This document shows positions 5,144 to 28,677 of a stretch of 37,263 nucleotides of DNA, in pieces. A model generated the notes under the pieces. The model worked only from the letters and a program-made list of their open reading frames with translations, made no database searches and was not told the DNA's origin. The stretch is taken from the IMG/VR virus record IMGVR_UViG_2778261172_000006, positions 1 through 37,263 of that record; one strand, written 5' to 3'. Numbering within the stretch: the stretch's first letter is position 1; every line of letters starts with the position of its first letter. Origin of the DNA: a virus (lineage: Duplodnaviria; Heunggongvirae; Uroviricota; Caudoviricetes). The translations under genes were made by a program, and so were the position numbers.

Positions 5144-5311
5144 TTAAACCCGGCCAGTGAAAATCGCTGGCCGGAGCAGTATCAGGATTTTTTAGTATGC
5201 CGTTCTCACAAAAAAACCGCTTGCCATGCCGCAATCAGTCAGGTTACATTTCCGCTGCACCTCATAAAACGGGTGCCGGGATTTCCACCCCGCTGACAAC
5301 TACAGCGCACA

Positions 5312-5331
5312 ACCGCGCCAGCGGTTTTTTT
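5312..5331 (+). terminator. candidate intrinsic terminator
   Basis: ACCGC-GCCA-GCGGT hairpin directly followed by seven T residues. Confidence 0.5.
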
Positions 5332-5510
5332 GTGCGTACTGTATCGCCACGTCTTTTTCGCACACGAATTATGGTGGGGCGTACGGGGCCGACTTCGGTC
5401 GGGCCGGGTTCTGTAGTTGCCGGTTGTGGAAACCCTGTACGTCTCACCACCCCGAGTTTTCCACCTCTGGATGGTGAGTTTTCAAAACTTGCAACTACAG
5501 AGGCCACACC

Positions 5511-23808: not shown

Positions 23809-25911
23809 ATGAGTACCACAACACGAAAATTTAAAACCGTTATCACCGATACGGGCGCAAAAAAATTAGCTCAGGCAGCCGCGCCAGATGGTAAGCCTGT
23901 CCGCCTGACTCATATGGCCGTGGGCGACGGTGGCGGCACGTTGCCCACACCAGACAGTAAGCAGACCCGTCTGGTGCATGAGGTGTGGCGACACACTGTT
24001 AATCGCGTCATCCTGGACGCAACACATCAGAACCGCATTATTGCGGAGCTGGTTATTCCTCCTGAAACGGGCGGATTCTGGATCCGGGAAATTGGTGTAT
24101 TTGATGAGCACGGCGATTTAATCGCGGTGGGCAATACTGCCGAAAGTTACAAACCAACCGTTGCCGAAGGGTCCGGACGTGCACAAACATTTCGCACCAT
24201 TCTGACCGTATCCAGCACTGCCACCGTGGCGCTTACCGTGGATAACACCATGGTGATGGCCACAGTGGATTACGTGGATGACAAACTGAAAGAGCATGAA
24301 CAGTCACGACGTCACCCGGACGCCTCGCTGACCGCAAAAGGCTTTGTTCAACTCAGTAGCGCCACTAACAGCGATTCTGAAACGCTGGCTGCAACGCCGA
24401 AAGCGGTTAAGGCCGCGTATGACCTGGCTAACGGAAAATATACCGCTCAGGACGCCACGACGGCACGAAAAGGGATAGTCCAGCTCAGCAGTGCAACCAA
24501 CAGCACGTCTGAAACGCTGGCAGCGACACCAAAAGCGGTTAAGGCGGTAATGGATGAAACGAACAAGAAAGCCCCATTAAACAGCCCGGCACTGACCGGA
24601 ACGCCAACAACACCAACTGCACGACAGGGAACGAATAATACCCAAATCGCAAGCACGGCTTTCGTTATGGCCGCGATTGCCGCACTTGTAGATTCGTCAC
24701 CTGACGCACTGAACACGCTGAACGAGCTGGCGGCGGCGCTGGGCAACGACCCGAATTTTGCGACCACCATGACTAACGCGCTTGCGGGTAAGCAACCGAA
24801 AGATGCCACCCTGACGGCGCTGGCCGGGCTTGCTACTGCGGCAGACAGGTTTCCGTATTTTACGGGGAATGATGTCGCCAGCCTGGCAACCCTGACAAAA
24901 GTCGGGCGGGATATTCTTGCGAAATCGACCGTTGCTGCCGTTATCGAATACCTCGGTTTACAGGAAACGGTAAATCAGGCTTCTGGCGCATTACAGAAAA
25001 ACCAGAACGGCGCAGATATTCCGGGAAAAGATACCTTCACCAAAAATATTGGGGCCTGCCGCGCATATAGCGCATGGCTGAATATTGGTGGCGATAGTCA
25101 GGTCTGGACAACCGCGCAATTTATTTCGTGGCTGGAGAGTCAGGGAGCATTTAACCATCCTTACTGGATGTGCAAAGGCTCATGGGCTTATGCAAATAAT
25201 AAGGTCATTACAGATACAGGTTGCGGAAATATTTGTCTTGCAGGTGCTGTGGTGGAAGTTATTGGTACTCGCGGCGCAATGACCATACGCGTTACTACGC
25301 CGAGCACGTCCAGCGGTGGCGGAATTACTAACGCTCAATTCACTTATATTAATCATGGTGATGCTTATGCTCCTGGCTGGCGACGAGACTACAACACGAA
25401 AAATCAACAACCTGCATTTGCTTTAGGGCAAACAGGAAGCACTGTCGGAAATGATAAAGCTGTTGGCTGGAACTGGAATAGCGGGGTCTATAACGCAAAC
25501 ATTGGTGGCGCATCGACATTAATCCTCCACTTCAATATGAATACGGGGAGCTGCCCTGCTGTACAGTTCCGCGTGAATTACAGGAACGGCGGTATTTTTT
25601 ATCGTTCAGCGCGTGATGGTTATGGATTTGAGGCTGACTGGTCAGAGTTTTACACCACGACCCGCAAACCCTCTGCGGGAGATGTTGGTGCATACACGCA
25701 GGCAGAATGTAACTCAAGGTTTATTACAGGTATTCGCCTTGGCGGTCTGTCATCTGTTCAGACATGGAATGGCCCCGGCTGGTCTGACAGGTCAGGTTAT
25801 GTCGTTACGGGTTCAGTTAACGGAAACCGTGATGAATTAATTGATACAACACAGGCAAGGCCAATTCAGTATTGCATTAATGGAACGTGGTATAACGCGG
25901 GGAGTATTTAA
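23809..25911 (+). CDS. H: tail fibre protein (P2 gpH family); C-terminal part encoded inside the invertible segment
   Basis: 700 aa; internal SSATNS-ETLAATPKAVKA repeats; C-terminus CINGTWYNAGSI; constant part ends at the left crossover site. Confidence 0.9.
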   Translation: MSTTTRKFKTVITDTGAKKLAQAAAPDGKPVRLTHMAVGDGGGTLPTPDSKQTRLVHEVWRHTVNRVILDATHQNRIIAELVIPPETGGFWIREIGVFDEHGDLIAVGNTAESYKPTVAEGSGRAQTFRTILTVSSTATVALTVDNTMVMATVDYVDDKLKEHEQSRRHPDASLTAKGFVQLSSATNSDSETLAATPKAVKAAYDLANGKYTAQDATTARKGIVQLSSATNSTSETLAATPKAVKAVMDETNKKAPLNSPALTGTPTTPTARQGTNNTQIASTAFVMAAIAALVDSSPDALNTLNELAAALGNDPNFATTMTNALAGKQPKDATLTALAGLATAADRFPYFTGNDVASLATLTKVGRDILAKSTVAAVIEYLGLQETVNQASGALQKNQNGADIPGKDTFTKNIGACRAYSAWLNIGGDSQVWTTAQFISWLESQGAFNHPYWMCKGSWAYANNKVITDTGCGNICLAGAVVEVIGTRGAMTIRVTTPSTSSGGGITNAQFTYINHGDAYAPGWRRDYNTKNQQPAFALGQTGSTVGNDKAVGWNWNSGVYNANIGGASTLILHFNMNTGSCPAVQFRVNYRNGGIFYRSARDGYGFEADWSEFYTTTRKPSAGDVGAYTQAECNSRFITGIRLGGLSSVQTWNGPGWSDRSGYVVTGSVNGNRDELIDTTQARPIQYCINGTWYNAGSI
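24340..24558 (+). repeat. tandem repeat of about 132 bp inside H, encoding GxVQLSSATNSxSETLAATPKAVKA twice
   Basis: Two 44-aa units visible in the H translation. Confidence 0.75.
24941..24974 (+). repeat. left crossover (gix-like) site
   Basis: TTATCGAATACCTCGGTTTACAGGAAACGGTAAA, inverted copy of 28002-28035 (31 of 34 identical); contains the TTCCTGTAAACCGAGGTTT core I recall for Mu gix. Confidence 0.85.
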
Positions 25912-25913
25912 TT

Positions 25914-26447
25914 ATGATGCACTTAAAAAATATTACAGCTGGCAACCCTAAAACAAAAGAGCAATACCAGCTAACGAAACAATTTAACATCAAATGGCTT
26001 TATACAGAGGATGGGAAAAACTGGTATGAGGAACAAAAGAACTTTCAGCCTGATACGTTGAAAATGGTCTATGACCACAACGACGTTATTATTTGTATTG
26101 AAAAGGATGTTTCAGCAATTAATCCAGAAGGCGCAAGCGTCGTTGAGGTTCCTGATATTACAGCAAATCGCCGGGCTGATATTTCGGGTAAATGGATGTT
26201 CAAAGATGGCGTAGTGATAAAGCGAACTTATACCGAGGAGGAACAGAGGCAGCAGGCAGAGAATGAAAAGCAAAGCCTGTTGCAACTTGTCAGGGATAAA
26301 ACCCAGCTATGGGACTCACAGCTACGGCTGGGCATCATTTCCGACGAGAATAAACAAAAATTAACCGAGTGGATGCTCTATGCGCAGAAGGTCGAATCCA
26401 CAGACACCTCCAGCCTGCCAGTAACGTTTCCCGAACAACCTGAATGA
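25914..26447 (+). CDS. G: tail fibre assembly chaperone (P2 gpG / Tfa family)
   Basis: 177 aa starting MMHLKNITAGNPKT; directly follows H. Confidence 0.85.
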   Translation: MMHLKNITAGNPKTKEQYQLTKQFNIKWLYTEDGKNWYEEQKNFQPDTLKMVYDHNDVIICIEKDVSAINPEGASVVEVPDITANRRADISGKWMFKDGVVIKRTYTEEEQRQQAENEKQSLLQLVRDKTQLWDSQLRLGIISDENKQKLTEWMLYAQKVESTDTSSLPVTFPEQPE

Positions 26448-26450
26448 GAC

Positions 26451-26480
26451 AAGGCCCGCTATCGGGCCTTAATTTTTATT
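26451..26480. terminator. bidirectional terminator between the convergent tfa genes
   Basis: AAGGCCCG-CTAT-CGGGCCTT hairpin followed by AATTTTTATT. Confidence 0.65.
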
Positions 26481-27003
26481 CAGGCTTTTGTGGCCATTCA
26501 GGATTTGCCGTATCCACACGGCTGACCAGAACACTGTAGCGTTCCCATGACTCCAGTCGTGCGCGCTCCTCATCCGTCGCCATATTCAGCCTGACAGCGC
26601 GTTCCAGTGGCTGAATAACGCTTTCTGCTTCGGAAAGTAACGCAGCCTTTTGTGATTCGGCCTGTTGTTGCTGTTCATCAGCCGTATAAATCCGTTTAAC
26701 CACAGCTCCGTCCTTAAACATCCACTTTCCTGAATCATCAGCGCGGCGGTTGGCTGTAATATCGGGAACCTCAACGACGCTAAAGCCTTCAGGGTTAAGC
26801 GTAGAGGCATCCTTGGTGATAGCGACAATAATATTATTTTCATCGTAAACAATCTTTATTGTGTCTGGCTGAAAGTTTTTCACTTCCTCATACCAGTTTT
26901 TTCCGTCTTCGGACCACAACCAGATAACGTCAAAATTCTTTGTTAATTCGTACTGCTCCAGTGTTTTAGCATTACCCGTTTTTATATTCTTTAAGTGCAT
27001 CAT
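26476..27003 (-). CDS. alternative tail fibre assembly chaperone (Tfa', inverse orientation)
   Basis: 175 aa, N-terminus [14 protein letters not shown] paralogous to G; minus strand inside the invertible segment. Confidence 0.85.
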
Positions 27004-27004
27004 A

Positions 27005-27985
27005 CTAAACGCTCGCTACATTATACCAGGTGCCATTTATATACTTTTGAACGGGTCTGTAATAAACGCCCGCTATATTATCGGCAGAGTTGGACCCTGT
27101 ATCCTGAACATTAATACCAGACAATACATGACCTGACGGGCACTGGAAATTCCATGTTTGCCAGTTGTTCACTCCATAATATTGCTGTGAACCAAGTCGA
27201 ACATCTTTCACATATCTGGAATCAAAATTGCCATAGTTGCCGGGAATAACTTGCGAGCCGCAAAGCCAGTTCCCGTTATTATCCATGTACGCCTGACCAT
27301 CGGTACCATTGGCTGTCCTTGAGTTATTAATCATGTAGATGCCAAATTGCTTATTCCCCAATCCACCTATCATGAACTTGCGGTCGGCGTGATTCTGGCG
27401 AAGCAACGCCTGAGCGCTATCAGTGTTAACTATATTTTTCCCAAAGATAGCGTTGTTATCGCGCATCTGAATCCACATACCATTACTGCTGTTAATAGCA
27501 AAACGGTCTGAAAGTGTCTCCCCTGAAACATTAAGACCACGCCCCATCGAAACAGCGCCAGTAGCGTTATTAATCCATAATGGCCTTAATCCGTTATAAG
27601 TCCCCATGTTGTCACCGGAGTTTGTCAACATGAAGTATGTATTTGAACCATCATTACGAATAAAGAATCCGTAATTACCATAAGCAATACGTAGGCCGTT
27701 TGCTGATTTTGATATGACTTCGCCATTTACAATGGCATTGACAAGAACATACAAAGCATCCCATTTAAGATTCATCAGGTCTTTTGTTGTGGTGCTTTGT
27801 TTGCTTCTCCATTTGAAATATTCATTGCCGTTGTCGCCTGTTTCAAACCACATGAATGAATCAGTATCGCTGTCGGCATCATTTTTAAAACCAATCTTCG
27901 CCCAGTCGGTATTTCGAATCCATGCAAGAATTGAGTCGTTTTCAAAAGTAAGTCCACCGGACAAGATATCGCCTGTCTTTTGCAC
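27005..27985 (-). CDS. alternative tail-fibre C-terminal cassette (no start of its own; reading frame stays open through the right crossover site to 28027)
   Basis: Frame upstream of the track start reads [15 protein letters not shown], matching EYLGLQETVN at the H crossover; C-terminus [11 protein letters not shown] paralogous to the H C-terminus. Confidence 0.8.
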
Positions 27986-28001
27986 GGCGTTACCAGCCTT
28001 G

Positions 28002-28035
28002 TTTACCGTTTCCTGTAAACCGAGGTTTTAGATAA
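28002..28035 (-). repeat. right crossover (gix-like) site
   Basis: TTTACCGTTTCCTGTAAACCGAGGTTTTAGATAA. Confidence 0.85.
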
Positions 28036-28089
28036 TGGCCGTTTCCGGCCTGCATGGCATGATTTGCGCTTTTGGACGGGAGATTCAGC

Positions 28090-28677
28090 GTGCTGATTGG
28101 CTATGTAAGGGTATCAACAAATGACCAGAATACAGACCTGCAACGAAACGCTCTTGTTTGTGCAGGATGTGAACAAATATTTGAAGATAAATTAAGCGGG
28201 ACAAAGACAGACCGACCGGGATTAAAACGCGCTTTAAAGCGCCTTCAAAAAGGTGACACGCTGGTTGTCTGGAAACTGGATCGCCTCGGGCGAAGCATGA
28301 AACATCTGATTTCTCTCGTCGGGGAACTACGGGAGCGAGGAATTAATTTTCGCAGTCTGACCGACAGCATAGATACATCTTCTCCAATGGGGCGTTTTTT
28401 CTTCCACGTGATGGGTGCCCTGGCTGAAATGGAACGTGAATTAATTGTTGAACGTACACTGGCCGGACTGGCGGCAGCACGCGCACGGGGGCGCACAGGC
28501 GGACGTCGACCGAAGCTGACAAAAGAACAGCATGAGCAAATAGCAAGGCTAATCAAAAACGGGCACGACAGAAAACAACTGGCAATAATTTACGGCATTG
28601 GTATATCGACGATTTATCGTTACCACCCCGCAGGAGAATCAAGGGGAACAATTGAGAAGAGTCAGGAAACAAAATAA
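28090..28677 (+). CDS. serine DNA invertase (Gin/Pin/Cin/Hin family)
   Basis: GTG start after GGGAG; VLIGYVRVSTNDQNTDLQRNALVCAGCEQIFEDKLSGT... is near-identical to the remembered Mu Gin sequence, including the catalytic Ser region and C-terminal HTH. Confidence 0.95.
   Translation: MLIGYVRVSTNDQNTDLQRNALVCAGCEQIFEDKLSGTKTDRPGLKRALKRLQKGDTLVVWKLDRLGRSMKHLISLVGELRERGINFRSLTDSIDTSSPMGRFFFHVMGALAEMERELIVERTLAGLAAARARGRTGGRRPKLTKEQHEQIARLIKNGHDRKQLAIIYGIGISTIYRYHPAGESRGTIEKSQETK

Follow-up and report, generated by a model that had tools for sequence, protein, structure and literature searches.

Two tandem units of the phage tail fibre repeat PF03406 in the proximal shaft region of a gpH-type fibre gene from a P88-like prophage of E. 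coli

The tail-fibre gene of a P88-like prophage contains two tandem units of the phage tail fibre repeat PF03406, a catalogued and already known family of which they are ordinary representatives. The gene lies in a virus record of 37,263 nucleotides (IMGVR_UViG_2778261172_000006, analysed at full length and called here the window), which is an E. coli prophage of the P88-like type (Xuanwuvirus, P2 family). We consider it probable, at about 80%, that the units belong to a spacer array in the constant proximal shaft of a gpH-type fibre and that this array is changed by whole units. The original prediction had placed two successive copies of a motif in the shaft of gene H and proposed that they can mediate recombination between fibre genes and alter shaft length.

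The fibre gene and its repeat

The gene that carries the repeat had been called an H-type tail fibre, and this assignment held. Its product begins with a PF12571 domain, its DNA is 81% identical to P2 H (aa 6-388), and in the constant part, which extends to about aa 385, identity to the H genes of P88 and Shae_phiSM reaches 95-97%. The PF12571 domain is presumed to attach to the baseplate, both because of what the family is called and because it comes after the baseplate genes J and I. The ORFs upstream of H have matches among baseplate and tail PHROGs, giving the order baseplate V-W-J-I, H and then a fibre-assembly gene, which is likewise annotated in P88, 520873 and Shae_phiSM; the ORF at 25914-26447, downstream of the tail-fibre gene, matches PF02413 (Caudo_TAP). 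The N-terminal domain, the similarity to P2 H and the gene order all identify the window's ORF as P2 gpH type. Like P2 gpH (NP_046775, 669 aa), it consists of PF12571, two 44-aa units (at G175 and G219 in P2) and then a VMDETNKKAPLNSPALTGTPT... shaft, a likeness that runs up to the inversion site. The P2 tip is fixed, whereas that of the window lies in an invertible cassette. Placed between the PF12571 domain and an exchangeable C-terminal tip, the repeat occupies the proximal region of the shaft, in which it had been placed.

Table 1. Features of the tail-fibre gene and of the adjoining invertible segment (window coordinates)
Feature	Position	Strand	Evidence and remarks
Tail-fibre gene, P2 gpH type, 700 aa	23809..25911	+	PF12571 and PF03406 x2; phrog_381 tail fiber, E = 8e-189
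N-terminal tail-collar fibre domain (aa 6-153)	23824..24267	+	PF12571, E = 1.2e-53
Repeat unit 1 (D171-Q214), 'first-unit' class, DASLTAKGFVQLSSATNSDSETLAATPKAVKAAYDLANGKYTAQ	24319..24450	+	PF03406 stretch 173-213; DNA core 24318-24413
Repeat unit 2 (D215-N258), 'last-unit' class, DATTARKGIVQLSSATNSTSETLAATPKAVKAVMDETNKKAPLN	24451..24582	+	Second PF03406 stretch; DNA core 24450-24545
Cassette common to lambda-type side-tail-fibre genes: unit 2, SPALTGTPTTPT motif, ALVDSSPDALNTLNELAAALGNDPNF segment	24465..24961	+	blastn; ends at inversion site
Left inverted repeat, gix-like crossover site inside H	24937..24998	.	62-nt inverted repeat with 27978-28039; shared core ACCTCGGTTTACAGGAAACGGTAAA
Right inverted repeat of invertible segment	27978..28039	.	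62-nt inverted repeat with 24937-24998
DNA invertase, Gin/Cin type, adjoining the invertible tip cassette, outside the repeat	28072..28677	+	phrog_125 DNA invertase, E = 9e-97

The DNA cores of the two units (Table 1) form a direct repeat of 96 nt with 73/96 identical positions (76%), and their start-to-start distance, predicted at about 132 bp, is exactly 132 nt. This is the top 96-nt ungapped self-match within the tail-fibre gene; in 100 codon-shuffled controls the best self-match averaged 45.8 +/- 1.4 and never exceeded 49/96. The protein motifs are as they had been quoted (G178 FVQLSSATNSDSETLAATPKAVKA and G222 IVQLSSATNSTSETLAATPKAVKA), with 23 of 25 residues identical, and the complete 44-aa units D171-Q214 and D215-N258 align with 29/40 identity (BLASTP, E = 7e-18). 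Position 24340, where the repeat had been taken to start, is the first base of codon G178, and the real onset of similarity, in DNA and protein, lies 22 nt before it, at D171 (DAsLTAK / DAtTArK). Each 44-aa period is made of a conserved core of ~32 aa and a variable linker of ~12 aa. Over the full 132-nt period the two copies are ~64% identical in DNA, and their longest perfect match is 14 nt. A per-codon comparison of K177-A202 with K221-A246 yields 13 identical codons, 11 that differ only synonymously and 2 that change the residue. It is the protein sequence of the units that is conserved, and not their DNA.

Tandem Repeats Finder reported nothing. This null could be taken to favour the explanation that the similarity is due to chance, low complexity or an assembly artefact, yet it is not evidence against the repeat, because two copies at 64-76% identity score too low. 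The shuffled controls and the BLASTP value between units refute that explanation, as do the match to a curated Pfam family, and the presence of the same two units in P2 and of an identical stretch of 501 nt in four finished genomes of E. coli O145; we regard its probability as next to nil. A non-coding reading of the region was also rejected (RNA folding z-score -0.48; terminator-like sites at chance level). No promoter-like site was found, and an antisense ORF at 24447-24809 (120 aa) matched no Pfam family.

Both units match PF03406 (Phage_fiber_2) in two stretches, with 140.5 bits against a gathering cut-off of 22 (E = 1.2e-41); the best stretch, aa 173-213, covers model positions 1-41 of 42. 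The family consists of units of ~40 residues, often in tandem, in tail-fibre proteins, and the two units of the window, with their 44-aa period, show no difference from ordinary members of PF03406 / InterPro IPR005068 (phage tail fibre repeat). Across H, Stf and Mu S, the units share 17 invariant positions out of 44. The unit is borne by 1816 clusters (among 1.84 billion representative proteins), in which as many as 12 copies occur at an identity to the query of about 87%. In very diverse fibres, which carry up to 17 units, the motif can still be recognised at a protein identity of about 50%.

Number of units in related fibre genes

The comparison of repeat number among related H genes gave the predicted outcome: between two and five units occur, with the 44-aa spacing kept in almost all cases, in H proteins whose N-termini are mostly 93-100% identical. 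Two units were counted in 58-59 of the 120 best-scoring H-type proteins, three in 18-19, four in 40 and five in 2, figures that come from a score-ranked list favouring many copies and are evidence of variation rather than an estimate of frequency. The spacing departs from 44 aa in four proteins with a 56-aa linker and in one with an internal 13-aa duplication. The tally includes draft assemblies, in which repeats can mis-assemble; in finished genomes there are two units in P2, YZ22MPE54, Shae_phiSM and the window, three in P88, 520873 and C311, four in FDAARGOS_1288, and one in lambda-type Stf.

These units fall into classes that keep their position among H genes (86-100% DNA identity between first units, 86-99% between last units), which indicates that the arrays are not freely homogenised. 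In comparisons with other H genes, unit 1 of the window is 87-95% identical in DNA to their first units and unit 2 is 89-95% identical to their last units; the window's two units are 64% identical to each other, and unit 2 is 79-80% identical to the single unit of lambda-type Stf. The window's array, one 'first' and one 'last' unit, is the minimum seen for the H lineage.

The closest relatives allow a change in unit number to be followed at the nucleotide level. P88, 520873 and the Citrobacter phage Shae_phiSM are 95-97% identical to the window in DNA over most of its length up to the inversion site, and they have the same H constant part and invertase cassette. Unlike P88 and 520873, with three units, the window has two, as does Shae_phiSM, and the tips differ. 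The Shae_phiSM array equals that of P88 minus one 132-nt unit, in frame. Going from P88 to Shae_phiSM leaves 4 mismatches in 411 nt for any position of the junction within a stretch of 48 nt that is identical between P88 units 1 and 2; removal of the whole first or last unit leaves 28 or 41. A junction within sequence shared by adjacent units is a signature of unequal crossover or slippage. In-frame alleles that differ by whole units and a junction in shared sequence are both found here, as in copy-number-variable coding repeats.

Copies would be added or removed when adjacent units undergo unequal homologous recombination or replication slippage. Neighbouring units of arrays with three or four copies have perfect in-register runs of 21-53 nt in common. 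The window's own copies, which share only a 14-nt perfect match, are poor substrates, so that recombination between them is expected to be rare; since they have diverged at synonymous sites, the array should be fairly stable.

Joints between fibre modules and the invertible tip

Similarity to other fibre genes begins or ends at the unit edges, which implies that the unit is also a mosaic joint between fibre modules. The H gene of FDAARGOS_1288 is 96% identical up to 24545, where the core of unit 2 ends, and unrelated past 24552. In a search of E. coli (2502 records matched), many of the matches listed end at query position 346 (window 24545) or begin inside a unit. Similarity to lambda-type Stf genes begins at 24465-24467, at the start of unit 2, and ends at 24956-24961 (blastn), and the cassette so delimited is 92.6% identical to the Stf gene of E. 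coli AVS0343 and 80.6% identical to lambda stf (blastn); its coiled segment matches the tail collar fibre gp4 of PDB 9d93. Together with the 132-nt difference between P88 and Shae_phiSM, these joints lend support to the proposal that the repeats can mediate recombination between fibre genes. The conserved core may serve as a homology patch at which an N-terminal module for baseplate attachment from one phage is joined in frame to a C-terminal receptor-binding module from another.

The repeat could instead be kept mainly as a DNA-level recombination linker for module swaps, the peptide having no particular structural role or effect on length. The coincidence of mosaic boundaries with unit edges fits such a linker, as does the presence of the unit in both P2-like H and lambda-type Stf genes at 79-88% DNA identity. 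Yet 11 of the 24 conserved residues in the K177-A202 core use different codons between units, the perfect match between the window's units does not exceed 14 nt, and selection on DNA homology does not readily account for the protein-level conservation of the motif at ~50% identity in diverse fibres. We hold a mere linker to be improbable, and continue with the structural spacer as the preferred reading.

The unit recurs in fibres of other designs. Lambda Stf has a PF03406 unit followed by the SPALTG... cassette, and tail fibre S of Mu (gp49) has a unit at aa 111-151; in contrast to the window's gene, lambda-type Stf and Mu S carry a single unit and have unrelated N-terminal domains. The N-terminus of Stf is annotated 'prophage tail fiber N-terminal domain'. 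The collagen-like prophage fibres of EHEC (EPclB type) also contain a PF03406 unit, and their rods vary by allele in whole periods, in multiples of 3 aa (collagen) or 7 aa (coiled coil) (PMC3368898). In the EPclB type, unlike here, length varies in the collagen and coiled-coil segments and not in the PF03406 unit, and the N- and C-terminal domains differ.

Downstream of the cassette the tip falls within the invertible segment. The left inverted repeat closes the constant, repeat-bearing part of H, and homology to P88 H ceases at 24979. Two Caudo_TAP genes lie there, together with a second, alternative tip encoded on the minus strand; the in-frame tip is at present Mu/D108 S'-like, and the silent one is P2-H-like. 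Inverted sites, a neighbouring serine invertase and two tips, each with its chaperone, make this a putative Gin/Cin-type segment.

Shaft length and significance

Each unit would be a self-contained structural spacer of the trimeric shaft, in which case the number of units would set the length of the proximal shaft. Any change in shaft length with unit number is likewise inferred. PDB searches by sequence and by unit profile led to entries of Mu tail fibre S alone and yielded no experimental structure of the unit; the Mu cryo-EM work is reported to have built no more of the fibre than its N-terminus (PMC11915804). No experimentally described fold was found for the PF03406 family. An AlphaFold2 model of H 1-394, computed as a monomer of a presumably trimeric fibre from a shallow alignment of 24 sequences, has a mean pLDDT of 43, with values of 27-43 over the repeats, and gives no useful information on their fold. 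No relevant work emerged from a literature search on variable copy number in tail-fibre repeats and on fibre length.

Alternatively, each unit could be a specific binding site, for a host glycan, for the tail sheath along which a fibre is stowed or for an assembly chaperone, and the number of copies would then adjust avidity, not length. The 17 invariant positions are more than a simple spacer might need, and Mu fibres have been reported docked along the sheath (PMC11915804). Against this, no search gave evidence for binding, the units adjoin the baseplate-attachment domain, far from the receptor-binding tip, and the unit occurs in lambda-type siphoviruses, which have no sheath, as well as in myoviruses. 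We find a binding role very unlikely and retain the spacer.

A bolder version of the spacer reading would make the PF03406 array a fast-evolving length dial of the proximal shaft, with units specialised for the first, internal and last positions. Unequal crossover would insert or remove internal ones, fitting fibre length to the rest of the fibre or to the thickness of the host surface layer. Arrays that precede the long SPALTG... shaft cassette mostly have 2 units (range 2-4), and those joined straight to other C-terminal modules have 4-5. This association of unit number with the downstream module could reflect length compensation and, equally, shared ancestry together with a biased sample. 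We regard the length dial as a tentative and rather doubtful idea.

As a member of a curated Pfam family, present in the type phage P2, the repeat has little discovery value in itself. Mosaic tail-fibre genes have been under discussion since the early 1990s, according to references given in PMC3945230, and chimeric P2-type fibres for host-range engineering have been made empirically (PMC9942202). Natural in-frame joints are present at the edges of the unit (about 24465 and 24545) and at the inversion site (about 24960-24980), and these joints could guide the design of such chimeric fibres. The natural alleles with 2-5 units, for their part, are a ready series for relating proximal shaft length to adsorption.

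The repeat of H in the window and in phage P2

An ungapped 96-nt self-match scan of H, the P2 gpH-type tail-fibre gene of the window, at all offsets gave 24318-24413 / 24450-24545 as the top pair (73/96), with a start-to-start spacing of 132 nt, as the original prediction had estimated. A repeat search returned the same pair (96 nt, 76% identity) as the sole long direct repeat within H. In 100 codon-shuffled versions of the gene the best self-match averaged 45.8 +/- 1.4 and reached at most 49. In translation, the two motifs quoted originally are found exactly, GFVQLSSATNSDSETLAATPKAVKA beginning at G178 and GIVQLSSATNSTSETLAATPKAVKA at G222. The start first proposed, 24340, is indeed the first base of codon G178, but the real onset of similarity is D171 (24319). 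The two 44-aa units so defined are identical at 29/40 residues (E = 7e-18), and each comprises a conserved core of ~32 aa and a linker of ~12 aa, the latter differing in unit 2. Four finished E. coli O145 chromosomes carry the repeat and its surroundings, 501 nt in all, at 100% identity. The margin over the shuffled genes, this E value, the O145 genomes and the PF03406 and P2 matches described below rule out chance or artefact.

Positions of H, the invertible segment and two RNA features in the window
Feature	Position	Strand	Remarks
isrK	5257-5331	+	63.6 bits, above Rfam gathering score
C4 antisense RNA	5367-5454	+	80.5 bits, above Rfam gathering score; adjoins isrK
Tail-fibre ORF H	23809-25911	+	700 aa
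Repeat unit 1	24319-24450	+	D171-Q214
Repeat unit 2	24451-24582	+	D215-N258
Left inverted repeat, gix-like	24937-24998		62 nt; inside H
Fibre-assembly gene (Caudo_TAP)	25914-26447	+	
Facing fibre-assembly gene (Caudo_TAP)	26476-27003	-	
Alternative tip	27005-27985	-	
Right inverted repeat, gix-like	27978-28039		partner of 24937-24998
DNA invertase	28072-28677		phrog_125, E = 9e-97

In Pfam, H aa 6-153 correspond to the tail-collar fibre N-terminal domain PF12571 (E = 1.2e-53), and PF03406 (Phage_fiber_2, 'phage tail fibre repeat') matches H twice (140.5 bits; cut-off 22). PHROGs places H in tail-fibre families (top E = 8e-189) and the ORFs upstream in baseplate and tail families. The P2-like family Peduoviridae includes the Xuanwuvirus Escherichia phage P88, to which the window's initial 25 kb show 96.6% identity across 82% of their length. 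Annotations of P88, 520873 and Citrobacter phage Shae_phiSM give the H orthologue as tail fibre, lying between baseplate and fibre-assembly genes. Both units also occur in gene H of phage P2 (669 aa), where they lie at G175 and G219 and are followed by the same sequence as in the window; DNA identity between the two H genes is 81% over aa 6-388. The name H was therefore right, and the repeat is a known feature, which the type phage already has and Pfam already lists: an ordinary PF03406 member in an ordinary P2-type H. Elsewhere in the window, isrK and the C4 antisense RNA (5257-5454) are probably part of a prophage immunity or anti-repressor control region.

Over the full period the DNA identity of the two units is only ~64%, which explains why Tandem Repeats Finder reported nothing for the H repeat; the longest perfect in-register run is 14 nt. 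Codon comparison of S173-A216 with T217-P260 gave 14 identical, 13 synonymous only and 17 residue-changing pairs, and in the core (K177-A202) the per-codon counts were 13, 11 and 2 non-synonymous. This pattern argues that the duplication is old and that the peptide sequence is what selection keeps up. Conservation is thus at the protein level, and a purely DNA-level 'linker' is contradicted both by this synonymous divergence and by the fact that highly varied fibres have units still recognisable at ~50% protein identity. Non-coding functions were unsupported as well: at the repeat, the RNA folding z-score was -0.48, a search for promoter-like sites gave none, terminator-like sites were at chance level and the antisense ORF had no family match.

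Whole-unit copy variation among close relatives

A protein search with H aa 1-300 yielded 5352 proteins at E <= 1e-20, several of which outscored the H self-match because they hold more units. As the original prediction had proposed to check, repeat number varies among H relatives: in the best 120 of 5352, the 119 complete arrays had two (58-59), three (18-19), four (40) or five (2) units, a tally from a list ranked by score, hence biased to many copies, and including draft assemblies, that shows variation and not frequencies. No single-unit H was found among these 119; one apparent case was a pattern miss due to an S-to-I change. Unit spacing in the best 120 was 44 aa; the exceptions are four cases of a 56-aa linker and one internal duplication of 13 aa. 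The duplication, in P0033, lies out of register inside a unit, and variant arrays among P0058-P0061 and P0121-P0123 have a 56-58-aa period with the linker motif SHTH(P/S)W..IT.

Finished genomes agree with this variation: one unit in lambda stf and the lambda-type Stf of E. coli AVS0343; two in the window, P2, E. coli YZ22MPE54 and Shae_phiSM; three in P88, 520873 and E. coli C311; and four in E. coli FDAARGOS_1288. Tail fibre S of Mu has one (aa 111-151). With a single unit as query, HMMER found 1816 clusters carrying it (E <= 0.001) in a full scan of 1.84 billion representative proteins. Copies number up to 12 where identity to the query is ~87%, and they reach 16-17 in divergent proteins of great length. 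In the 11- and 12-unit proteins the 44-aa period alternates with a longer one bearing a SHTHPW...ITG linker.

Comparison of 132-nt in-register units from nine genes showed that they group by array position. First units are mutually 86-100% identical in DNA and last units 86-99%, whereas first and last units share only 61-67%; internal units of P88, 520873 and C311 are 95-100% identical. The window array consists of one first-class and one last-class unit. Perfect runs reach 48 nt between P88 units 1-2, and 53 nt (units 2-3) and 45 nt (units 3-4) in FDAARGOS_1288. We then removed 132 nt in silico from the P88 array at every offset and compared the products with Shae_phiSM. Mismatches were fewest (4/411 nt) with the junction anywhere in one 48-nt stretch (aa 189-205), exactly what P88 units 1 and 2 have identical, while deleting the whole first or last unit left 28 or 41. 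Such a junction is what unequal homologous crossover or replication slippage from one unit to its neighbour should leave behind, in line with the original idea that such repeats can mediate recombination. Against the window the minimum fell at the same place but with 23 mismatches, so the window did not arise recently from a P88-like three-unit allele. With only 14 nt of perfect identity between its units, and no single-unit H among the 119 relatives, the window's array is probably stable and at its functional minimum.

Unit edges and inversion site as joints of the fibre gene

Local blastn of H against relatives' loci located the ends of similarity. FDAARGOS_1288 H matches at 96% identity between the start codon and 24545, where the unit-2 core ends, and is unrelated past ~24552. 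Two lambda-type stf genes become similar only at 24465-24467, the unit-2 core start, and remain so to 24956-24961 (92.6% and 80.6%); in P88, C311 and Shae_phiSM similarity persists until 24979-25022. Megablast of 24200-24700 matched 2502 records of finished E. coli genomes, only 364 of them with at least 80% query coverage. In a sample of these matches, many stop at 24545 of the window, position 346 of the query, or start at query positions 134-153 or 266-288, inside units 1 and 2, and many are annotated 'prophage tail fiber N-terminal domain-containing protein', that is, lambda-type Stf. As judged from these alignment ends, mosaic boundaries fall at unit edges, again in line with recombination.

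The shaft 3' of the repeats (aa 259-384, 24583-24960) carries two widely shared fibre motifs, SPALTGTPTTPT...NTQIASTAFV and ALVDSSPDALNTLNELAAALGNDPNFATT. The latter matches a chain of known structure, 9d93 'tail collar fibers gp4' (E = 3e-10), and its segment is common to lambda-type Stf genes (81-93% DNA identity). In the related prophage of FDAARGOS_1288 (L005 4065-4967, NZ_CP070007.1) a 'macro domain-containing protein' gene, an unusual occupant of this slot, lies between the 4-unit H and the tail-fibre-assembly gene.

The left inverted repeat is a second joint in H, unlike the unit-edge joint in kind. Both inverted repeats share the core ACCTCGGTTTACAGGAAACGGTAAA, and an invertase gene is adjacent. 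The repeat units therefore lie in the constant part of H, whose tip would be switchable by inversion. The in-frame tip is 96-99.7% identical in DNA to S' tips of Mu, D108 and a Yersinia phage; the silent alternative tip, with its own chaperone gene, reads as in P2 H. The region 24937-28677 is a Mu G-segment-like invertible tip cassette in a P2-family prophage, and the two paralogous Caudo_TAP genes inside it form a 353-nt inverted repeat (25908-26260 / 26657-27009, 71% identity). Dozens of database H proteins (P0063-P0120) carry the label 'partial' and stop at aa 374-388, precisely the inversion site (~24940-24980). Evidently the invertible segment interrupts draft assemblies, and public H lengths in this phage group are therefore systematically truncated.

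Role of the unit in the fibre

The original observation is confirmed and its interpretation supported; as to shaft length, we infer that the unit would serve as a structural spacer within the trimeric shaft, with copy number setting the length of its proximal part. In the PDB the unit is present only in Mu S sequences, and the Mu virion paper built the fibre at its N-terminus only (PMC11915804). An AlphaFold2 monomer model was uninformative, its mean pLDDT being 43 (27-43 across the repeats), and PF03406 is among the repeat families for which contact-based and homology models disagree (PMC8078820). In EHEC collagen-like prophage fibre proteins, which also bear a PF03406 unit, rod segments vary in length by whole periods (PMC3368898). 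That each unit is a specific binding site is improbable: nothing supports it, and the unit's occurrence in contractile-tailed and lambda-type phages alike speaks against such a role.

That tail-fibre genes undergo horizontal exchange and rearrangement of motifs has long been known (papers of 1989-1994, listed in PMC3945230). As a homology patch, the unit would let P2-like, lambda-type and Mu-type fibre modules join in frame. Unit number in relation to the C-terminal module is one mildly interesting lead: in the best 120, arrays of 2-4 units, mostly 2, precede the VMDETNKK/SPALTG shaft cassette, and 4-5 units are found where NDNANGR or YDNAEKR modules join the array directly. The cause may be length compensation, or just lineage and biased sampling.
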